Below, piece after piece: positions 2,662 through 34,159 of a stretch of DNA of 64,000 nucleotides. This DNA is from Escherichia coli (GTDB lineage: Bacteria > Pseudomonadota > Gammaproteobacteria > Enterobacterales > Enterobacteriaceae). A program made the translations under genes and the position numbers. The notes under the pieces were generated by a model. That model was given only the letters and a program-made list of their open reading frames with translations. It searched no databases and was not told the origin of the DNA. The DNA lies in NCBI RefSeq assembly GCF_046105845.1, contig NZ_CP151004.1; one strand, given 5' to 3'. The first letter of the stretch is position 1, and every line of letters starts with the position of its first letter.

Positions 2662-4638
2662 ATGTCTGACGACATGTCTATGGGTTTGCCTTCGTCAGCG
2701 GGCGAACACGGTGTACTACGCTCCATGCAGGAGGTTGCAATGAGCTCCCAGGAAGCCAGCAAGATGCTGCGTACTTACAATATTGCCTGGTGGGGCAATA
2801 ACTACTATGACGTTAACGAGCTGGGCCACATTAGCGTGTGCCCGGACCCGGACGTCCCGGAAGCTCGCGTCGATCTCGCGCAGTTAGTGAAAACTCGTGA
2901 AGCACAGGGCCAGCGTCTGCCTGCACTGTTCTGTTTCCCACAGATCCTGCAGCATCGTTTGCGTTCTATTAACGCCGCGTTCAAACGTGCGCGGGAATCC
3001 TACGGCTATAACGGCGATTACTTCCTCGTTTATCCGATCAAAGTTAACCAGCACCGCCGCGTGATTGAGTCCCTGATTCATTCGGGCGAACCGCTAGGCC
3101 TGGAAGCCGGTTCCAAAGCGGAGTTGATGGCGGTGCTGGCACATGCTGGCATGACCCGTAGCGTCATCGTCTGCAACGGTTATAAGGACCGCGAATATAT
3201 CCGCCTGGCATTAATTGGCGAGAAGATGGGCCACAAGGTCTATCTGGTCATTGAGAAGATGTCAGAAATTGCCATTGTGCTGGATGAAGCAGAACGTCTG
3301 AATGTCGTTCCTCGTCTGGGCGTGCGTGCGCGTCTGGCTTCGCAGGGCTCCGGTAAATGGCAGTCCTCCGGCGGGGAAAAATCGAAGTTCGGCCTGGCGG
3401 CGACTCAGGTACTGCAACTGGTTGAAACCCTGCGTGAAGCCGGGCGTCTCGACAGCCTGCAACTGCTGCACTTCCACCTCGGTTCGCAGATGGCGAATAT
3501 TCGCGATATCGCGACAGGCGTTCGTGAATCCGCGCGTTTCTATGTTGAGCTGCACAAGCTGGGCGTCAATATTCAGTGCTTCGACGTCGGCGGTGGTCTG
3601 GGCGTGGACTATGAAGGCACCCGTTCGCAGTCCGACTGTTCGGTGAACTACGGCCTCAATGAATACGCCAACAACATCATCTGGGCGATTGGTGATGCGT
3701 GTGAAGAAAATGGTCTGCCACATCCGACAGTAATCACCGAGTCGGGTCGTGCGGTGACTGCACATCACACCGTGCTGGTGTCGAATATCATCGGCGTGGA
3801 ACGTAACGAATACACGGTGCCGACTGCGCCTGCAGAAGACGCACCGCGCGCCCTGCAAAGCATGTGGGAAACCTGGCAGGAGATGCACGAACCGGGAACT
3901 CGCCGTTCTCTGCGTGAGTGGTTGCATGACAGCCAGATGGATCTGCACGATATTCATATCGGCTACTCTTCCGGCACCTTTAGCCTGCAAGAACGCGCAT
4001 GGGCTGAGCAGCTTTATTTGAGCATGTGCCATGAAGTGCAAAAGCAGCTGGATCCGCAAAACCGTGCTCATCGTCCGATTATCGACGAGCTGCAGGAACG
4101 TATGGCGGACAAAATGTACGTCAACTTCTCGCTGTTCCAGTCGATGCCGGATGCGTGGGGGATCGACCAGTTGTTCCCGGTTCTGCCGCTGGAAGGGTTG
4201 GATCAAGTGCCGGAACGTCGCGCTGTGCTGCTGGATATTACCTGTGACTCTGACGGTGCTATCGACCACTATATTGATGGTGATGGTATTGCCACGACAA
4301 TGCCAATGCCGGAGTACGATCCAGAGAATCCGCCGATGCTCGGTTTCTTTATGGTCGGCGCATATCAGGAGATCCTCGGCAATATGCACAACCTGTTCGG
4401 TGATACCGAAGCGGTTGACGTGTTCGTGTTCCCTGACGGTAGCGTAGAAGTAGAACTGTCTGACGAAGGCGATACCGTGGCGGACATGCTGCAATATGTA
4501 CAGCTCGATCCGAAAACGCTGTTAACCCAGTTCCGCGATCAAGTGAAGAAAACCGATCTTGATGCTGAACTGCAACAACAGTTCCTTGAAGAGTTCGAGG
4601 CAGGTTTGTACGGTTATACCTATCTTGAAGATGAATAA
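2662..4638 (+). CDS. speA: Biosynthetic arginine decarboxylase
   Basis: ORF 2650..4638; sequence from [25 protein letters not shown]... recognised as SpeA; ATG at 2662 with a gagg SD gives 658 aa. Confidence 0.96.
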
Positions 4639-21957: not shown

Positions 21958-22049
21958 GCGCTATCTGATGGAAAAATAAAACAGAGGCGCTAAGCTTGCC
22001 TCCAGAGGTCCTGAATTTTAGGCAAGTCAATTAACACGGAGAGACTAAC

Positions 22050-22790
22050 GTGAAGTTCAAAGTTATCGCCCTGGCGGCATTAATGGGTATTAGCGGGATG
22101 GCAGCGCAGGCTAACGAATTGCCGGATGGACCGCATATTGTCACCTCCGGTACGGCAAGCGTGGATGCGGTGCCAGACATTGCCACTCTTGCGATTGAAG
22201 TTAACGTGGCCGCGAAGGATGCCGCTACTGCCAAGAAACAGGCGGATGAGCGCGTCGCACAATACATTTCCTTCCTTGAACTCAATCAGATCGCGAAAAA
22301 AGATATCAGCTCAGCGAACTTACGCACCCAGCCAGATTATGATTATCAGGATGGTAAAAGTATCCTGAAAGGCTACCGCGCTGTGAGAACGGTGGAAGTC
22401 ACGCTCCGTCAGTTAGACAAACTGAATTCCTTGCTGGATGGCGCGCTGAAGGCGGGTCTTAACGAAATTCGTTCTGTGTCGCTGGGCGTGGCGCAGCCGG
22501 ATGCCTATAAAGACAAAGCGCGTAAGGCAGCGATTGATAACGCGATTCATCAGGCGCAGGAACTGGCGAACGGCTTTCATCGTAAACTAGGGCCGGTATA
22601 TAGCGTGCGCTACCATGTTTCCAACTATCAGCCCAGCCCAATGGTGCGGATGATGAAAGCCGATGCCGCGCCGGTGTCCGCCCAGGAAACTTACGAGCAG
22701 GCCGCTATTCAGTTTGATGATCAGGTCGATGTGGTCTTCCAGTTAGAACCTGTGGATCAACAACCCGCTAAAACACCTGCCGCACAATAA
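22050..22790 (+). CDS. yggE: Periplasmic DUF541/SIMPL-family oxidative-stress protein
   Basis: 246-aa ORF with signal peptide MKFKVIALAALMGISGMAAQA; GTG start. Confidence 0.93.
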   Translation: MKFKVIALAALMGISGMAAQANELPDGPHIVTSGTASVDAVPDIATLAIEVNVAAKDAATAKKQADERVAQYISFLELNQIAKKDISSANLRTQPDYDYQDGKSILKGYRAVRTVEVTLRQLDKLNSLLDGALKAGLNEIRSVSLGVAQPDAYKDKARKAAIDNAIHQAQELANGFHRKLGPVYSVRYHVSNYQPSPMVRMMKADAAPVSAQETYEQAAIQFDDQVDVVFQLEPVDQQPAKTPAAQ

Positions 22791-22956
22791 TACTTGTAGC
22801 CCGACGTATTGGTCGGGCTAATGCCTTTACCCGATATTGCCTCCTTTTTCTGTAATTTTCTGTAAAACCATGACGTAATCACCTATCTTTGCTCGCGGTT
22901 TCATCAAGGATAGGCTGACTGAAACGGTTAAGCGGACAAGGATGCGGGGAGCGGGG

Positions 22957-23853
22957 ATGGACATTTTTATTTCGAAAAAGATGCGCAATTTCATTTTATT
23001 AGCGCAAACCAATAATATTGCCCGGGCGGCAGAAAAAATCCATATGACGGCTTCGCCATTTGGCAAAAGCATTGCCGCGCTGGAAGAACAAATTGGCTAT
23101 ACGCTATTTACCCGCAAAGATAATAATATCAGCCTCAATAAAGCCGGACAGGAACTGTATCAAAAACTGTTCCCGGTTTATCAACGACTTTCTGCGATTG
23201 ATAATGAAATCCATAACTCAGGGCGTCGTTCACGAGAAATTGTGATTGGCATAGATAATACTTATCCGACAATTATTTTCGATCAGTTGATTAGTCTCGG
23301 AGATAAGTATGAAGGCGTGACCGCCCAGCCAGTTGAGTTCAGCGAAAACGGCGTTATCGATAATCTTTTTGACCGTCAGTTAGATTTTATTATCTCCCCA
23401 CAGCATGTATCTGCACGAGTTCAGGAACTGGAAAACCTGACTATCAGTGAACTACCACCGCTGCGATTGGGCTTTCTCGTTTCTCGCCGTTATGAAGAGC
23501 GACAAGAGCAAGAGCTGCTTCAGGAGCTACCCTGGCTACAAATGCGCTTTCAGAACCGGGCCAACTTCGAAGCAATGATTGATGCGAATATGCGACCTTG
23601 TGGGATCAATCCAACCATTATTTATCGTCCCTACAGTTTTATGGCCAAAATCAGCGCCGTGGAGCGCGGACATTTTCTGACGGTGATCCCGCATTTTGCC
23701 TGGCGACTGGTGAATCCGGCAACGCTGAAATATTTTGATGCGCCGCACAGGCCGATGTATATGCAGGAATATCTTTATTCAATCAGAAATCATCGTTATA
23801 CCGCCACGATGCTTCAGCATATTGCTGAAGATCGTGACGGGACGAGTCATTAA
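22957..23853 (+). CDS. ygfI: LysR-family transcriptional regulator
   Basis: ORF 22942..23853; N-terminal HTH (NIARAAEKIHMTASPFGKSIAALEEQIG); start at 22957 or 22942. Confidence 0.88.
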   Translation: MDIFISKKMRNFILLAQTNNIARAAEKIHMTASPFGKSIAALEEQIGYTLFTRKDNNISLNKAGQELYQKLFPVYQRLSAIDNEIHNSGRRSREIVIGIDNTYPTIIFDQLISLGDKYEGVTAQPVEFSENGVIDNLFDRQLDFIISPQHVSARVQELENLTISELPPLRLGFLVSRRYEERQEQELLQELPWLQMRFQNRANFEAMIDANMRPCGINPTIIYRPYSFMAKISAVERGHFLTVIPHFAWRLVNPATLKYFDAPHRPMYMQEYLYSIRNHRYTATMLQHIAEDRDGTSH

Positions 23854-25328
23854 CCCAGCATCGAGCCGGTTGCAATTAAATTACGGTGTAAATCGAAGAC
23901 GTGGCTAAGATCGTGGTGAATATGTCCGCCGGGCGCATTTTCCAGATAGCGATGCAGATAATCCCGATACATAGGATGTGCACAATTATCAATGATAGTG
24001 CGGGCGCGTTGAAGCGGGGAAAGACCACGCAGATCGGCGATGCCTTGTTCGGTGATGATCACTTTGACGCTGTGTTCGCTGTGATCAACATGGCTGCACA
24101 TTGGCACGACGGTTGAGATCTTGCCTTCTTTAGCAATCGACGGGGCCATAAAGATCGACAGATACGCGTTGCGTTCAAAATCACCGCTGCCACCGATGCC
24201 GTTCATCAGATCGACCCCGGCTACGTGCGTTGAGTTGGCATGCCCGTAAATATCAAACTCCAGGCCGACGTTCAGAGCGATGACGCCCAGACGACGGATG
24301 ATTTCCGGGTTATTGGAAATCTCCTGCGGACGCAACACAATGCGGCTGGCAAAGTAATCCATATTGTCGTAAATCTTGCGCAGGGAATCGGCCGAGATAG
24401 TCAGGCTGGAGGCGCTGGCCCCGCTGATTTTGCCCGTTTCCAGTAAATGCACCACCGATTCCTGTAGCACTTCCGAATACATCATGAACGGAGGAATTTC
24501 CGGGTTTTCCCCTAGTCGCGCCATGACTGCATTATTGATATTGCCCACGCCACTTTGCAGCGGCAGAAATTCCGGCGGAATACGCCCATGCGCCATTTCC
24601 TGCAACAAGAACGTGACCACGTTATCGGCAATCTGCTGGCACATGGGATTTTGCTTATCCAGCATATTACCGGCGTCGGGCAAGTTGGTTTCCACGACGG
24701 CGACAATCTTTTTCGGATCGATTTGCACATAGCGGGTACCGACGCGATCCATTGCATGGAAGATCGACACGCTATTGCGCCGCGGTGGCGCGCCAGGAAT
24801 CACAATATCTGCCAGTTCTGCAACGCGCGGATCGTGATAGTGATTGAGTTCAATGATCACTTTCTTCGCCCGCAGCAGCCAGGTCGGCGCATTACCGATC
24901 CCGCTGGTTAACCAGACTCGACCATCCGGTGCCAGTGCCGATGCTTCAATGACGGCAACATCAATTTCGCCGAAGAAACCGTAATTGACCATTTGCGCCA
25001 CTTCGCTCAAATGCAGGTCAACGAAACTCACCGCGCCCTGATTGATCTTTTTACGTAAACCGGACGATGTTTGATATGGCGCACGCCAGGAAACAGCATC
25101 GGCGTCAGAAAGTACATCGTCAGCGGCGGCGCTGATTGACGCCCCCGTCAGCAGGCGGATTTGATACGGCTTTTGGGCCTCATGCTGTTCGTTAGCTCTG
25201 CGGGCAATGGCGGTGGGAAGGGCTTTCGGCGAACCCGCCGGGGTAAAGCCGCTAAATGCCACCATGTCGTTATGCTGGATAATTTCTGCCGCTTCATCGG
25301 CGGTCATCCTTGTCCACTGAGTTTCCAT
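23850..25328 (-). CDS. scpC: Propionyl-CoA:succinate CoA transferase
   Basis: 492-aa ORF recognised as ScpC/YgfH; 3' end overlaps the ygfI stop by 4 nt (convergent). Confidence 0.94.
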   Translation of the reverse strand: METQWTRMTADEAAEIIQHNDMVAFSGFTPAGSPKALPTAIARRANEQHEAQKPYQIRLLTGASISAAADDVLSDADAVSWRAPYQTSSGLRKKINQGAVSFVDLHLSEVAQMVNYGFFGEIDVAVIEASALAPDGRVWLTSGIGNAPTWLLRAKKVIIELNHYHDPRVAELADIVIPGAPPRRNSVSIFHAMDRVGTRYVQIDPKKIVAVVETNLPDAGNMLDKQNPMCQQIADNVVTFLLQEMAHGRIPPEFLPLQSGVGNINNAVMARLGENPEIPPFMMYSEVLQESVVHLLETGKISGASASSLTISADSLRKIYDNMDYFASRIVLRPQEISNNPEIIRRLGVIALNVGLEFDIYGHANSTHVAGVDLMNGIGGSGDFERNAYLSIFMAPSIAKEGKISTVVPMCSHVDHSEHSVKVIITEQGIADLRGLSPLQRARTIIDNCAHPMYRDYLHRYLENAPGGHIHHDLSHVFDLHRNLIATGSMLG

Positions 25329-25351
25329 TTTTACTCCTTCGTTCGTAGGGA

Positions 25352-26137
25352 TTAATGACCAACGAAATTAGGTTTACGTTTTTCGAGGAAAGCGTTCATC
25401 CCTTCCTGGTAATCTTCGCTGTCATAAACCGCGCGGCGCATCCCCTGAATACGTTCAAATTCATCGGAGTTCATGGTGTGCGCTTCGCCCAGTACACGCA
25501 GCTCTTCTTTGATAACGGCAATGGCTAACGGCGCTTTCTCAGAGATGTGGTGCGCCATTTGTAAGGTGAAATCTTCCAGTTCTTCCACTTCCACAACATG
25601 GTTGAGGATGCCGACAGCCAGCGCGCGCTGGGCTGTGATTGGCGAAGCGGTAAAAATCAGCTCTTTGACAATGTGGAAGCCCGCGTCGCGGGTCAGGTTG
25701 TGAATGCCGACCAGGTTATACGGGACACCGAGGTTTACAGGTGTCATTGAGAAGGTTGAGGTACTGGCGGCGATAATCAGATCGGAACTCATGATCATTT
25801 CAAATGCGCCACCCCAAACACTACCTTCCACCATCGAAATGATCGGTTTCGGGAATTTTTGGATCATGCGGGTGATTTGACGCAATGGATCATCATAGGA
25901 GAGCGGATCGCGACCGCCAGACGGCAGTTCGTGAATATCGTGACCTGCGGAGAAGACTTTGGAACCACTCGGCGCGCGCAAAATGATACAGCGAATTTCC
26001 GGCCGGTTGAGATCGCTTAATGCCTGCATAAGATCATCAATAAAGACTTTACTTAAGGCATTAAGTTTGCGGCCATAGTTAAACTCAATGACCGCCACTT
26101 TGTTGATAGTGACAACGTTCACATACTGATAAGACAT
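25352..26137 (-). CDS. scpB: Methylmalonyl-CoA decarboxylase (crotonase fold)
   Basis: ORF 25352..26179 trimmed to MSYQYVNVVTINKVAVIEFNYGRKLNAL at 26137; 261 aa. Confidence 0.93.
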   Translation of the reverse strand: MSYQYVNVVTINKVAVIEFNYGRKLNALSKVFIDDLMQALSDLNRPEIRCIILRAPSGSKVFSAGHDIHELPSGGRDPLSYDDPLRQITRMIQKFPKPIISMVEGSVWGGAFEMIMSSDLIIAASTSTFSMTPVNLGVPYNLVGIHNLTRDAGFHIVKELIFTASPITAQRALAVGILNHVVEVEELEDFTLQMAHHISEKAPLAIAVIKEELRVLGEAHTMNSDEFERIQGMRRAVYDSEDYQEGMNAFLEKRKPNFVGH

Positions 26138-26147
26138 AAAAATTCCT

Positions 26148-27143
26148 TTAATCAAAATATTGCGTCTGGATAAATTCACTGAGCTGCCGCAGGCCGGTGC
26201 GCGGTGAGAGCGTATTGTTTTTGACCGCTAAAAGCGTCTGGCGGTAATAGCGATCGAAATCTTCATTCGCGAACAGGTGATTCAGTACTTCTTCTTCGGT
26301 TTGTTTACGCAGCCATTCCACCGATTGTTGTTGCCGCACTTGTTGCAAACGACCACTGGCAGTTAGCGCGGTTTTGAAGTCGATGATGGCGTGCCAGATC
26401 TCATCGATTCCACGTTTTTCCAGTGCGCTACAAGTCAGAACTCGTGGCTGCCATTCGTCGTATTTATGTCGCAGAATATGCAGGGCACTCTCGTACATAT
26501 GCCGGGCAATGGCGACATTGGTATGGTTATCGCCATCGTCTTTGTTGATAACGATCAGATCTGCCACTTCCATCAGCCCCTTTTTAATGCCCTGCAGATC
26601 ATCGCCACCACCGGCAATTTGCAACGAGATAAAACAGTCAACCATGCGGGCGACTTCCGTTTCCGACTGCCCGACGCCAACCGTTTCGACAATCACTACG
26701 TCATAACCCGCCGCTTCGCATAACAGCATTAATTCCCGCGCTCGCTGACTGGCACCGCCCAGATGGCCGGAGGATGGTACCGGGCGAATAAACGCCGCCT
26801 CGGCACGCGCCAGGTCATTCATGCGGGTTTTATCCCCGAGAATGCTACCGCCAGTGACCGGGCTACTGGGATCGACCGCAACAACCGCAACCTTTAGTCC
26901 CTCACGAATCAACAACATGCCAAAGGCTTCAAGAAAGGTACTTTTCCCCGCGCCGGGTGTGCCGGTAACGCCCAGTCGCAGGGCGTTACCACAGAACGGC
27001 ATAATGGCATCAAGCAGCTGCGTACTTAGCGCCTGATGACGCGGGTGACGGCTTTCTACCAGTGTCATGGCCTGGGCGAGCGTGGCACGCTCACCCTGAC
27101 GTAAGCGGCGAATACTTTCTGCCAGCGTGGCTTCATTAATCAT
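26148..27143 (-). CDS. argK: MeaB/ArgK-type GTPase (methylmalonyl-CoA mutase accessory protein)
   Basis: 331-aa ORF with P-loop [12 protein letters not shown]. Confidence 0.94.
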
Positions 27144-29280
27144 GATGCTGGCTTATCAGATTCAGTACGTCGCGCACGCTGTCGAGCATAGGCGTACCAG
27201 GACCATAAATCGCCGCCACGCCGCGCTCCTGCAGGAAGGCGTAATCCTGTGGCGGGATGACGCCACCCGCGACCACGCAGATATCTTCGCGTCCCCATTT
27301 TTTCAGCGCTTCGACCAGTTCCGGGATCAGCGTTTTATGACCGGCAGCCAGTGAAGATGCGCCCACTACGTGAACGTCGTTTTCTACTGCCAGGCGGGCG
27401 ATCTCTTCAGGTGTAGAGAACATCGGGCTTAAATCTACGTCGAAACCGAGATCGGAATAGGCGCTGGCGATCACTTTCGCGCCGCGATCGTGCCCATCCT
27501 GGCCCATTTTGGCGATCAGAATGCGCGGGCGACGACCATTGTCGGCAAGGAACTGCTCCGTTTGCGCAACAATGGCATCGAACTCGGAAGCCGATTTCTC
27601 AGACTGATGATAGCTTTGCGCAATCACGCCGGTAACACACTGGCTTGGCACCAGATAACGGTCAAATGCCGCTTCCAGCGCATCGGAAATTTCACCAAGC
27701 GTTGCGCGAACGCGAGCGGCATTAACAGCGGCAGCCAGCAGGTTTTCGTTATGCTGTGCGGCGTGAGTCAGGGCGTTCAACGTGGCGGTTACGGCGGCAT
27801 CATCACGGGTGGCGCGAATGCGTTCCAGTGAAGCAATCTGCTCGTTACGCACCATCACGTTGTCGATCTCAAGTACATCGGTTTCGTCTTCGTGATCCAG
27901 TTTGTACTTGTTGACACCAACGATGACACGCTTGCCCTGGTCGATCAGCGACTGTTCGCGCGCTGAGGCCTCTTCGATCATTCGTTTTGGCAGACCTGCT
28001 TCGATCGCTTTCGCCATACCACCGGCTTCGTCGATCTGTTGGATAATAGCTCTGGCTTGTTTGACGATTTGATCGGTCAGCGACTCAACGTAATAGGATC
28101 CGGCCAGTGGATCGACGGTGCGGCAGAGTTCTGATTCTTCCTGAATGATGATCTGGGTATTGCGGGCAATGCGTGCTGAGAAATCGGTAGGCAAACCAAG
28201 CGCTTCATCAAAGGCGTTGGTATGCAGTGACTGAGTACCGCCCAGCGTTGCAGCCAGTGCTTCAATGGTGGTGCGGATAACGTTGTTATACGGATCCTGT
28301 TCAGTCAGGCTCCAGCCTGAGGTCTGGCAGTGGGTACGCAGCGCCAGTGATTTCGGATCCTGTGCGCCAAATCCACTGACCGCTTCGCTCCATAAATAAC
28401 GTGCCGCACGCAACATGGCGACGTTCATAAACAGATCCATGCCAATGCCGAAGAAGAACGACAGGCGAGGAGCGAAGTCATCAATTTTCAGCCCGGCGGA
28501 GATTGCTGCTTTGATGTACTCAATCCCATCAGCGAGCGTAAATGCTACCTGCTGCACGCAGTTGGCACCCGCTTCACCCATATGGTAACCGCTGATACTG
28601 ATGGTATTAAATCGCGGCATGTTGCCGGAACACCAGGCGATGATGTCTGCGATAATACGCATTGACGGTTTTGGCGGGTAAATATAGGTGTTGCGGCAAA
28701 GATACTCTTTGAGGATATCGTTTTGAATGGTGCCGGTCAGTTTATCGGGTGTAACACCTTGCTCTTCTGCGGCGACAATATAAAACGCCAGTACTGGTAG
28801 TACTGCGCCATTCATGGTCATCGAAACCGACATTTTATCCAGCGGGATCTGGTCGAACAGGACTTTCATATCTTCCACGGTGTCGATAGCAACGCCCGCT
28901 TTGCCGACGTCGCCCGCCACGCGCGGGTTATCGGAGTCGTAGCCTCGGTGGGTGGCAAGGTCAAACGCAACGGAAAGACCTTTTTGCCCGGCGGCCAGGT
29001 TACGGCGATAAAAAGCGTTGGACTCTTTTGCTGTTGAAAAACCAGCATACTGACGGATGGTCCACGGTTGGGCGGTATACATAGTGGCACGCGGGCCACG
29101 AACGTAGGGAGGCAAACCAGGAAGGGTACCTGTCACCTCCAGATTATCGAGATCGGCTTCGGTATACAGCGGCTTGATGGCGATCCCTTCCGCGGTTTGC
29201 TGAACCAGCGAGTCGACAGTTTTCTCCCGACGGCTCAATTCCTTGTTGGCAAGCTGTTGCCACTCCTGCACCTTAGACAT
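27136..29280 (-). CDS. scpA: Methylmalonyl-CoA mutase (sleeping beauty mutase), B12-dependent
   Basis: ORF 27136..29301 trimmed to [15 protein letters not shown] at 29280; 714 aa; C-terminal B12-binding domain (DGHDRGAKV). Confidence 0.95.
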
Positions 29281-29483
29281 TATTTGCTCCGTAAAACGCA
29301 ATCAAAATGAGGGTATTTGCGCCTACGGTGAGCTTTTTACGTGGGTTTGTCGCCAGCAAAAAAAATGCATTCAGACGTCGTTTTTTGCCGCCTGAGATTT
29401 GTCTATTTTGTGATGTGATTCAAGGAATACAAAAAGAAGTGAGGATAACGCCTGATATGTGCTATCAGGCATTATTTGATGGA

Positions 29484-30377
29484 TTAATCCTGACGAAGGA
29501 CTTTGTGACCATAATCGAGCAACGCATCAGTGACTTTACGCATCATGCGGCTTTCAGGAGCAAAGCGGTGCCAGTAGAGCATCCGGCGTTGAAATAGCCC
29601 TGGCGTTAAGTCAATCAGTTCACCGCTGGCCAGTTCTTTCTCGATTTGCAGGTGCGGGATCATACAGCAGGTGGTGCCCTGGCGAGCAAGTTGCACGAAC
29701 GCTTCTGAAGAATTAACGATATGGCACGGTACGCTGCCTGGGGGCAGATCGAAGTTTTGCTGCAAAAAGGCCTGGTGCATATCGTCAAGATGGTCAAAGG
29801 CGACCACAGGTGCTTTCAATAATGCCGAACGCGTTACGCCGTTAGGGAAATATTTTTCGGCAAACGGTTTTGAGCTGACGAACAGATAGTCAAGCGCACC
29901 GAGCTTATCGACAAGACAACTCGGCAGCGCCTGATGTTGAATACTCACCGCGCCGACCACTTCGCCGCGGCGCAGACGTTCCTGAGTGCGGGTTTCATCT
30001 TCTACCTGCAAGTTGAGGCGGATAGGCGAATCAGCCAACACAGGAGCCAGCGCCGGAAGCAACCACGTCGCCAGACTGTCAGCGTTGACCGCCAGTGAAA
30101 GCAGCAGCGGAGTTGAACCGGTTTGTTCATCGCCCAGCCACTCTTCTTCCAGTAACTCCACCTGGCGCAGCAGTGCCAGCAGTTTTTGCCCTTGTTCTGT
30201 CGGGCGCGGTGGTACGGTACGCACCAACAGTGGCTGCCCGAACATATTTTCCAGTTGCTTAATGCGCTGTGAGACGGCTGATTGTGTAATGCACAGCTTT
30301 TGTGCCGCGCGCTCAAATCCTCGTTCACGTATCACCGCATCCAGTGCCTGTAATGTTCTGTAGTCCGGGCGTTTCAT
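29484..30377 (-). CDS. argP: LysR-family regulator ArgP (IciA)
   Basis: ORF 29484..30443 trimmed to [43 protein letters not shown] at 30377; 297 aa. Confidence 0.95.
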
Positions 30378-30416
30378 TGCTGTTGTCTGCTCCTGGTAAA
30401 TGCTTTTTCCTGCACT

Positions 30417-30749
30417 ATGACACAATTTTGTGTCAGGTTGCATATACCGAAGCCGTCGGCGGGTAACATTTGTATTCGTGGTAAAACGCGCAGCTTAAAA
30501 GATCAGGGATTTGCGCTAATGCATTTCGCTCAGCGAGTTCGCGCCCTGGTTGTGTTGAATGGCGTGGCGCTATTGCCTCAATTTGCCTGTAAACAGGGGC
30601 TTGCGAACGGTGAACTGGTGCGCCTGTTTGCACCGTGGAGCGGCATACCCAGATTGTTGTATGCCTTATTTGCGGGGCGAAAGGGGATGCCTGCCATTGC
30701 GCGATATTTTATGGATGAGTTAACCACGCGGCTTGCCAACGGGGTCTGA
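30417..30749 (+). pseudogene. yqfE: Remnant of a LysR-family regulator (C-terminal substrate-binding fragment; yqfE-like)
   Basis: Translation ...VVLNGVALLPQFACKQGLANGELVRLFAPWSGIPRLLYALFAGRKGMPAIARYFMDEL... resembles only the C-terminal end of LysR effector domains; no HTH, no credible start. Confidence 0.6.
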
Positions 30750-30804
30750 ATCGCTTTTTTTGTATATAATGCGTGTGAAATTTCATACCACAGGCGAAAC
30801 GATC

Positions 30805-31464
30805 ATGACGCAGGATGAATTGAAAAAAGCAGTAGGATGGGCGGCACTTCAGTATGTTCAGCCCGGCACCATTGTTGGTGTAGGTACAGGTTCCACCGCC
30901 GCACACTTTATTGACGCGCTCGGCACGATGAAAGGCCAGATTGAAGGGGCCGTTTCCAGTTCAGATGCTTCCACTGAAAAACTGAAAAGCCTCGGCATTC
31001 ACGTTTTTGATCTCAACGAAGTCGACAGCCTTGGCATCTACGTTGATGGCGCAGATGAAATCAACGGCCACATGCAAATGATCAAAGGCGGCGGCGCGGC
31101 GCTGACCCGTGAAAAAATCATTGCTTCGGTTGCGGAAAAATTTATCTGTATTGCCGACGCCTCCAAGCAGGTTGATATTCTGGGCAAATTCCCGCTGCCA
31201 GTAGAAGTTATCCCGATGGCACGTAGTGCAGTGGCGCGCCAGCTGGTGAAACTGGGCGGTCGTCCGGAATACCGCCAGGGCGTGGTGACCGATAACGGCA
31301 ACGTGATCCTCGACGTCCACGGCATGGAAATCCTTGACCCGATAGCGATGGAAAACGCCATAAATGCGATTCCTGGCGTGGTGACTGTTGGCTTGTTTGC
31401 TAACCGTGGCGCGGACGTTGCGCTGATTGGCACACCTGACGGTGTCAAAACCATTGTGAAATGA
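30805..31464 (+). CDS. rpiA: Ribose-5-phosphate isomerase A
   Basis: ORF 30733..31464 trimmed to [31 protein letters not shown] at 30805; 219 aa. Confidence 0.96.
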
Positions 31465-31719
31465 TCTGACGGGGGAACCTCCCCCGTTAAAAAAATTCTC
31501 TTCATTAAATTTGGTGACATGTGTCACGTTTTTACCTGGCTATTGTCGATTGCTCTAAATAAACCCTCTAAACCAGCATATTCATCCAAGAAATACCTTT
31601 GCGTGATATTTCCTCAACATTGCGACGCAAACGTTCATATTGCCGCAATATTATTTTTTGATATGTTGAAAGGCGGATGCAAATCCGCACACAACATTTC
31701 AAAAGACAGGATTGGGTAA

Positions 31720-33149: not shown

Positions 33150-33291
33150 CGGTAAAGCCCTCACCGAAGCGAGGGCTTGAAGGAGAAGGGTTATGATGCG
33201 ACTTGTCATCATACTGATTGTACTGTTACTCATAAGTTTCCCAGCTTATTAACAGTCAGTCTCAGGGGAGGAGTCATCCTCCCTTACCCTT
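33150..33291 (-). ncRNA. sibC: SibC antisense sRNA (antitoxin to ibsC); boundaries approximate
   Basis: Opposite strand of ibsC; putative sigma70 promoter (TTGACA, 17-nt spacer, TAATTT) at 33299-33327 and a minus-strand GC hairpin (33165-33188) with T-rich tail at the other end. Confidence 0.6.
33193..33252 (+). CDS. ibsC: Type I toxin IbsC (19-aa hydrophobic peptide)
   Basis: SD aggagaaggg then ATGATG...; translation MMRLVIILIVLLLISFPAY, one residue different from the IbsC sequence I recall; not in ORF track because it is too short. Confidence 0.85.
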   Translation: MMRLVIILIVLLLISFPAY

Positions 33292-33298
33292 ACTCACT

Positions 33299-33327
33299 AA
33301 ATTAGGTTAAAGAATCAACGATGTCAA
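33299..33327 (-). promoter_or_regulatory. Putative sigma70 promoter of sibC
   Basis: Minus-strand TTGACA (33322-33327) with 17-nt spacer to TAATTT (33299-33304). Confidence 0.45.
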
Positions 33328-33973: not shown

Positions 33974-34159
33974 AGGGAATCTCCGAGATGCCGCCGCAGG
34001 CTGTAACCCTTGAACCCTTGGTTCAAGGTGAATGTGTCGTCGCAGTTTTAAGGCTTCTCGGACGGACCGAGCATGCTCACCAACCGCGGAGCGCCACATT
34101 CTTGTGGTATGAAATATCGGCTCAGGGGACTGGCCCGCTTGCGAACATCTCAGAGAAAT
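33974..34159 (-). ncRNA. ssrS: 6S RNA (RNA polymerase sigma70-holoenzyme regulator)
   Basis: Minus-strand sequence AUUUCUCUGAGAUGUUCGCAAGCGGGCCAGUCCCCUGAGCCGAUAUUUCAUACC...GGAGAUUCCCU matches the E. coli 6S RNA as I recall it; located between zapA and ygfA. Exact 3' end uncertain by a few nt. Confidence 0.93.

Follow-up and report, generated by a model that had tools for sequence, protein, structure and literature searches.

We conclude with high confidence that the 64,000-nucleotide stretch of Escherichia coli DNA analysed here (the window) carries an intact, gene-for-gene orthologue of the K-12 scpA-argK-scpB-scpC operon, to which the established model of the catalytic cycle applies. The ORF map places this chromosomal four-gene operon entirely on the minus strand, at 23850-29280. 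It comprises scpA (also sbm; 27136-29280, 714 aa), encoding an adenosylcobalamin-dependent methylmalonyl-CoA mutase; argK (ygfD/meaB; 26148-27143, 331 aa), encoding the G-protein chaperone of the mutase; scpB (ygfG; 25352-26137, 261 aa), encoding a crotonase-fold methylmalonyl-CoA decarboxylase; and scpC (ygfH; 23850-25328, 492 aa), encoding a propionyl-CoA:succinate CoA-transferase. All four genes begin with ATG, end with TAA and contain no internal stops or frameshifts. The first-pass annotation had read them as four intact minus-strand genes, and we found its coordinates and strand to be exact and the gene lengths to equal those of K-12, with none of the internal frameshifts or truncations relative to K-12 that would have told against it. 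The gene identities, the gene order and the neighbours that it proposed (argP upstream, and srsR, also called ygfI, convergent downstream) likewise match K-12, NCBIfam models and solved structures. The ‘sleeping beauty mutase’ system to which these genes belong has been in the literature since 2000, and both its biochemistry and its structures have been worked out. It is in wide use in metabolic engineering, where the operon has been exploited for propionate, 1-propanol and 3-hydroxyvalerate polymers. The finding is therefore correct but ordinary, and the view that an intact cryptic pathway is notable did not survive comparison with other genomes, since 4273 of 5426 complete E. coli genomes (about 79%) carry this textbook operon essentially whole.

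The correspondence with K-12 MG1655 (b2917-b2920) extends to gene order, gene lengths, the three internal junctions (-8, 10 and 23 nt), the flanking argP and the 4-nt overlap with convergent srsR. The annotated strain K_EC180 and annotated RefSeq genomes likewise have this gene order and these two flanks. Across the four genes there are 110 nucleotide differences from K-12 (97.3-98.6% identity), which give rise to 13 amino-acid substitutions (five in ScpA, four in ArgK, none in ScpB and four in ScpC), none of them inside the motifs that we located. With dS at 0.06-0.10, the dN/dS ratios are 0.035 for scpA, 0.052 for argK, 0.000 for scpB and 0.059 for scpC, values that show purifying selection on the operon genes. 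An allele that is intact and under purifying selection should be usable. The annotated ATG starts agree with K-12 and with the crystallised ScpB protein; the longer versions in the mechanical ORF list (TTG at 29301, GTG at 26179) add upstream codons in the same frame.

At the protein level, all four products exceed the curated cut-offs of NCBIfam equivalog or subfamily models with end-to-end coverage, and full-length alignment, the check put forward in the first-pass annotation, showed that each has a solved structure to which it aligns along its whole length. In the case of the mutase, ScpA scores 1251.7 bits against the equivalog NF006944 (cut-off 876, residues 4-713); its residues 6-707 align with human MUT, and residues 26-703 with the alpha chain of the Propionibacterium shermanii mutase (MCM). 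Both parts of an adenosylcobalamin-dependent mutase, the N-terminal substrate barrel and the C-terminal B12-binding domain, are present, with TIGR00641 matching residues 28-547 and TIGR00640 residues 583-713, and the B12-binding motif DxHxxG is found as DGHDRG at residues 595-600. The stretches RQYAGF, RNTYI and SISGYHM, which we take to carry active-site residues, show no difference from human MUT in the alignment. The B12-dependent fold, the His-on DxHxxG motif and a partner P-loop GTPase are shared with the Propionibacterium, Methylobacterium and human mitochondrial mutases that work with MeaB or MMAA. Like the human enzyme, the E. coli mutase consists of one chain (714 aa), whereas that of P. 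shermanii is an alpha/beta heterodimer.

ScpB and PDB 1EF8 are identical throughout residues 1-261, and ScpB scores 487 bits against NF008506 (cut-off 257). ScpC meets its own subfamily model, TIGR03458 (YgfH), at 754 bits (cut-off 658.7), and residues 8-491 align with the solved CoA-transferases 2NVV and AarC 4EU3 (residues 10-491 for the latter). Together with this full-length match, the motifs YSEV at 284, whose glutamate is presumably the catalytic one, and GIGGSGD at 377 (the GxGGxxD loop) identify ScpC as a class I CoA-transferase of the YgfH subfamily. Propionibacteria reach propionate by way of an epimerase and a biotin transcarboxylase; here the crotonase-fold decarboxylase ScpB takes the place of the transcarboxylase step, and the operon encodes no epimerase.

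ArgK matches the E. coli structure 2P67 along residues 1-331 and scores 494 bits against the MeaB equivalog NF006958 (cut-off 329). It is a P-loop GTPase with a Walker A motif (GTPGAGKS, 61-68) and an NKxD motif (NKDD, 200-203), and its gene adjoins that of the mutase, as expected of a MeaB/MMAA chaperone. Under an older annotation, the same protein would be a lysine/arginine/ornithine (LAO) transport kinase unrelated to the mutase, and 2P67 and several homologues still bear the label ‘LAO/AO transport system kinase/ATPase’. We regard this older assignment as scarcely credible, because the best families for ArgK are MeaB equivalogs (494 and 453 bits), its alignment with Methylobacterium extorquens MeaB (2QM7) is nearly full-length and that with human MMAA (2WWW, 8GJU) spans residues 14-292, it has the motifs of a G protein, its gene starts 8 nt before the mutase gene ends, and its present RefSeq name is that of a mutase-interacting GTPase.

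That overlap, ATGATTAA, joins the end of scpA to the beginning of argK and lies at 27136-27143 on the minus strand, with the 8-nt length given in the first-pass annotation. The argK ATG is not preceded by a Shine-Dalgarno sequence, and translational coupling of argK to scpA is likely. A description of the junctions as tightly overlapping holds for scpA/argK only; argK and scpB are separated by a 10-nt spacer with its own Shine-Dalgarno sequence (AAGGA), and scpB and scpC by a 23-nt spacer with another (AAGGAG). At its downstream end, the operon meets srsR convergently as had been proposed, the minus-strand scpC and plus-strand srsR stop codons having the four nucleotides TTAA at 23850-23853 in common. 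The region contains 13 terminator-like matches, a chance-level number (9.3 ± 3.3 expected). These tight junctions and chance-level matches are consistent with a single transcription unit, and we infer co-transcription of the four genes from the literature.

Upstream, the operon is separated from argP by a 203-nt spacer at 29281-29483. Read on the minus strand, it begins after the argP stop with a 13-bp hairpin (29445-29475; fold z-score -4.1) and continues into the leader and the GGAG Shine-Dalgarno sequence of scpA. With 1 nt of difference from K-12, the spacer probably leaves the operon as silent here as it is there. Its identity to K-12 (99.5%) and to ST131 (98.0%) does not amount to unusual conservation, given that neighbouring spacers are 98.2-98.8% identical. 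A search of this interval for a promoter and for sites of the convergent regulator, also suggested beforehand, returned no good match for either. On the operon strand, a consensus scan, which by its nature does not prove a promoter absent, gave no sigma-70 match of at least 9/12 in 29281-29483, the best candidates picked out by eye reaching about 5-7 of 12. No SrsR box (TCAGATTTTGC) occurs in the same interval with up to 2 mismatches, and matches to this box over the whole window are at chance level (31 found, 24.2 ± 4.7 expected). Rfam gave no cobalamin riboswitch at the gathering threshold anywhere in the window, and a search of 29150-29600 with E-values up to 10 gave neither a cobalamin riboswitch nor any other family, only sub-threshold noise. 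When repeats and dyads in the spacer were considered as possible LysR or ArgP sites (the ArgP consensus is not sharp enough for scanning), the only clear dyad was the 13-bp hairpin, accompanied by short repeats at chance level. The lack of a good sigma-70 promoter match, SrsR box or riboswitch in the spacer fits the published picture of a nearly silent operon.

Both neighbours encode LysR-family regulators whose proteins are identical to those of K-12. The co-directional upstream gene argP (iciA; 29484-30377, minus strand, 297 aa) yields a product scoring 418 bits against NF002964, and the convergent srsR (22957-23853, plus strand, 298 aa) one that scores 635 bits against the equivalog NF047842 (cut-off 425). 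The published work on SrsR targets does not mention the scpA-argK-scpB-scpC operon in its text and does not have it among its 10 predicted target genes (PMC9181523).

In the established model, ScpA with adenosylcobalamin would convert succinyl-CoA to methylmalonyl-CoA, while ArgK/YgfD, as a MeaB-type GTPase, would bind the mutase and, by analogy with MeaB and MMAA, be expected to assist or protect its cofactor. ScpB would then decarboxylate methylmalonyl-CoA to propionyl-CoA, and ScpC would move CoA from propionyl-CoA to a new succinate, freeing propionate and regenerating succinyl-CoA, so that the net reaction of the cycle would be succinate to propionate and CO2. The B12 cofactor would need to come from import or salvage, and the native upstream region would drive very little transcription, which together would keep the pathway normally silent in the laboratory. 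The enzyme activities, the B12 dependence and the low expression we infer from the literature on K-12 (PMC3850637, PMC5512728). E. coli imports B12 and does not make it (PMC3850637), in agreement with the first-pass annotation, which noted that the species lacks de novo synthesis.

Whether these four genes suffice for a complete succinate-to-propionate pathway, as was first supposed, is disputed; the genes are intact, but in one study the expressed operon required an added methylmalonyl-CoA epimerase to yield propionate from glucose, and the authors reasoned that ScpA yields the (R)-form of methylmalonyl-CoA, whereas decarboxylases reportedly use the (S)-form (PMC5512728). From this difference in stereochemistry, the four genes may not be self-sufficient in vivo. 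It is conceivable, if distinctly less probable than the model, that the enzymes instead handle methylmalonyl-CoA or propionyl-CoA derived from amino-acid or odd-chain breakdown, or partly run in reverse, and that alone, lacking an epimerase, they form an incomplete route. In line with such a role, the operon enhanced the degradation of amino acids to propionate and allowed isoleucine degradation (PMC5512728), its metabolic context has been called ‘ambiguous’ (PMC3850637), and no epimerase gene lies in or beside it within the window. Against it, Haller et al., as summarised in the background of PMC5512728, coupled ScpA to ScpB in vitro and obtained propionyl-CoA from succinyl-CoA, and several engineering studies have obtained propionate or 1-propanol from operon genes with B12 (PMC3850637).

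A different question is whether the operon is under selection at all, since it is dispensable, as judged from the loss of most of it through one common 4.3-kb deletion in 1113 of the 5426 complete genomes (about 20.5-21%), ST131 included. The deleted allele lacks the equivalent of window positions 24004-28261, between an imperfect 15-nt direct repeat, and retains pseudogene remnants of scpC (153 nt) and scpA (about 0.93-1.03 kb). The flanks (yggE-srsR ... argP-rpiA) and the upstream spacer are the same in both alleles, and the window carries the undeleted form, and ST131 and related genomes the deleted form, of one locus. In some other E. coli genomes, the operon was lost through an IS1-associated deletion. 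If these losses are set beside the lack of a recognisable promoter and the silence of the operon in the literature (PMC3850637), the operon might be taken for an evolutionary relic nearing loss, with no function under selection and intact here by chance. We consider this very improbable: dN/dS ratios of 0-0.06 at this level of divergence from K-12 indicate that amino-acid changes have been removed by selection, and all reading frames and checked motifs are intact. The scpA remnant left in deletion carriers, on the other hand, goes on losing sequence through further deletions. The strength of this purifying selection could also be read in the opposite direction, as a sign of expression and use in some niche. 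The operon would then not be truly cryptic, being expressed and useful in a corrinoid-rich natural niche such as the gut, with transcription that reads through the argP hairpin or starts at a condition-specific promoter that escapes recognition. No intergenic terminator fits within the 4-nt scpC/srsR overlap, so that transcription of the operon and that of srsR could interfere with each other, and the single ancient deletion in ST131-like lineages would mark a niche shift. We think such an active operon unlikely, if less so than a relic, and retain the established model of an intact but normally silent pathway.

The presence or absence of the operon is a polymorphism within the species that could serve as a lineage marker, and it bears on what the pathway is for. 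A literature search for a lineage-specific deletion of the operon found nothing relevant, and one apparent match was set aside because it concerned the microcin gene mcmA. Two premature stops interrupt srsR in the ST131 strain examined, and the S92* allele is present in 552 genomes. Joint decay of srsR and the operon would suggest that SrsR regulates the operon, an idea that we rejected when srsR proved intact in three other genomes with the same deletion.

An ORF listing of positions 22000-31500 revealed four long open reading frames in succession on the minus strand, with a convergent plus-strand ORF on one flank and a co-directional ORF upstream. When 23000-30500 was compared by megablast with complete E. 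coli genomes, 5425 of 5426 matched, and the features annotated beneath the match were scpA, meaB (argK), scpB, scpC, argP and srsR. Using the annotated loci of strain K_EC180 and K-12 MG1655 to set gene positions, we placed scpA at 27136-29280, argK at 26148-27143, scpB at 25352-26137 and scpC at 23850-25328, all on the minus strand, between srsR/ygfI (22957-23853, plus) and argP (29484-30377, minus). The TTG (29301) and GTG (26179) starts in the ORF listing represent slightly longer in-frame extensions 5' of the annotated starts; the ATG starts agree with the K-12 annotation and, for ScpB, also with the crystallised protein.

All four proteins fell end to end into their expected NCBIfam families, with scores above the curated cut-offs: ScpA as methylmalonyl-CoA mutase (1251.7 bits, cut-off 876), ArgK as MeaB (494 bits, cut-off 329), ScpB as methylmalonyl-CoA decarboxylase (487 bits, cut-off 257) and ScpC as a YgfH-subfamily succinate CoA-transferase (754 bits, cut-off 658.7). 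Comparison with PDB entries aligned ScpA with human MUT (residues 6-707) and the P. shermanii alpha chain (26-703), ArgK with the E. coli structure 2P67 (residues 1-331), MeaB (nearly full-length) and MMAA (14-292), and ScpC with 2NVV and AarC-type succinyl-CoA:acetate CoA-transferases (8-491), while ScpB is identical in sequence to PDB 1EF8. The B12 His-on ligand motif DGHDRG is present at ScpA 595-600, as are the Walker A GTPGAGKS and NKDD motifs of ArgK and the YSEV and GIGGSGD motifs of ScpC. We therefore regard the identity of the locus as a K-12-type scpA-argK-scpBC operon as near certain. It belongs with the K-12 operon on all features tested, with activity, B12 dependence and co-transcription inferred from the literature, and it is a locus already known.

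The first-pass annotation had described a complete operon, and this description proved accurate: the genes are as named, in K-12 order, and a gene-by-gene check for frameshifts and truncations against K-12 found each with K-12 length, an ATG start, a TAA stop and no internal stops. There were 48 nucleotide differences in scpA (five amino-acid changes: N3K, H27Q, I398V, A500T, V537A), 27 in argK (four: Y50F, T54A, I88V, R226H), 11 in scpB (none) and 24 in scpC (four: N11D, K52Q, D121E, V277E), with none of the 13 substitutions falling inside the checked ScpA, ArgK and ScpC motifs. Since Nei-Gojobori dN/dS values against K-12 were 0.035 for scpA, 0.052 for argK, 0.000 for scpB and 0.059 for scpC, at a dS of 0.06-0.10, the comparison indicates an operon under purifying selection, rather than one drifting as a dead operon. 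The view that an intact operon is notable in a species that does not make B12 does not stand: B12-dependent enzymes are a well-understood feature of non-producers that import the cofactor, and work on this operon, engineering included, goes back more than two decades.

The junctions had been described, in the plural, as tightly overlapping. This holds for the 8-nt overlap between the scpA stop and the argK start (ATGATTAA) and for the convergent end, where TTAA at 23850-23853 is common to the stop codons of scpC and srsR, but not for argK-scpB and scpB-scpC, which are separated by spacers of 10 and 23 nt with AAGGA and AAGGAG 5' of the respective starts. No Shine-Dalgarno sequence was found upstream of the argK start; this arrangement usually marks translational coupling, which is likely between scpA and argK.

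In the most likely cycle, drawn from the K-12 literature, ScpA with adenosylcobalamin would interconvert succinyl-CoA and methylmalonyl-CoA, ScpB would decarboxylate the latter to propionyl-CoA, and ScpC would close the cycle by passing CoA to succinate, for a net conversion of succinate to propionate and CO2; ArgK/YgfD would serve as the mutase's MeaB-type GTPase partner. E. coli does not make B12, and the formation of active Sbm depends on added cyanocobalamin, for which one study (PMC3850637) gives a threshold near 0.2 uM. The single real controversy over the pathway is stereochemistry. Propionate was obtained from glucose only after adding methylmalonyl-CoA epimerase, and the native operon has been termed 'an incomplete pathway' (PMC5512728). 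Because of this requirement, and because no epimerase gene lies in or adjoining the operon within the window, we rate the pathway's self-sufficiency and physiological direction as far less certain than the identity of the locus.

The intact operon is the majority state in E. coli: at least 80% of 23850-29483 is present in 4273 of the 5426 complete genomes, and most genomes below 80% have only about 23% covered. In an ST131 genome, the equivalent of 24004-28261 is absent, removing most of the operon, as in ST131-like genomes, and fusing 153 nt of scpC to about 0.93 kb of scpA. The end points of this 4.3-kb deletion correspond to an imperfect 15-nt direct repeat (23989-24003 and 28262-28276; TCAATGATAGTGCGG and TCAATGGTGGTGCGG). 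A 71-nt junction query was fully covered in 1113 of the 5426 genomes, and this identical junction argues for one ancestral event; a literature search found no paper describing the deletion. Among sampled carriers the scpA remnant shows further erosion, with successive lengths of 1029, 966 and 927 nt. Strain MB51 lost the srsR-to-scpA stretch independently, and an IS1A element now separates its truncated srsR from the initial 576 nt of scpA (L004, its copy of the region, 3070-4576). The srsR gene of the ST131 genome (1608-2504 of its srsR-argP locus, L003, equivalent to 22957-23853) has two premature stops, S92* and W193*, the S92* allele occurring in 552 complete genomes. Coupling of srsR loss to operon loss was ruled out, since srsR is intact in three further deletion carriers.

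A check of 29281-29483 for a promoter and YgfI sites had been suggested. This 203-nt argP-scpA spacer differs from K-12 by one base, and scanning it yielded neither, by consensus on the operon strand, a sigma-70-like site scoring 9/12 or better nor, with up to two mismatches, the published SrsR box TCAGATTTTGC (PMC9181523), whose counts over the whole window were at chance. The operon is also absent from the text of that study and from its 10 predicted SrsR target genes. Terminator-like matches across the region were at chance level (13, against 9.3 +/- 3.3 expected). A 13-bp hairpin at 29445-29475, directly 3' of the argP stop and with a U-rich stretch some distance further on, is probably the argP terminator. 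The 220-nt leader (29281-29500, minus) folds more stably than shuffled controls (z = -4.1), and the scpA leader matched no Rfam family, cobalamin riboswitch included. Conditional expression of the operon and selection for it in nature, perhaps accompanied by argP read-through and convergent interference with srsR, seem to us quite improbable; if true, this would be of modest interest.

The G+C content of srsR (44.7%) is lower than that of the adjacent operon (53.2%), argP (54.0%) or the window (51.5%), a possible sign that this regulator gene has a different origin. Upstream of argP, 30378-30880, which in K-12 contains the yqfE LysR-fragment pseudogene, is indel-rich across strains (84% identity with 46 gap positions against K_EC180, 98.6% against K-12), and its annotated small ORFs vary from genome to genome. 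The window is collinear with the chromosome of E. coli (speA, tkt, pgk, fbaA ... gcvP, lysS, recJ), with Rfam matches to 6S RNA (ssrS; 33976-34159, minus, 139.8 bits) and the Sib antitoxin RNA SibC (33177-33327, minus, 136.5 bits) where K-12 synteny predicts. Its best identity among the 5426 complete RefSeq genomes is only 98.5-99.0%, and the source lineage is therefore without a close representative among them.
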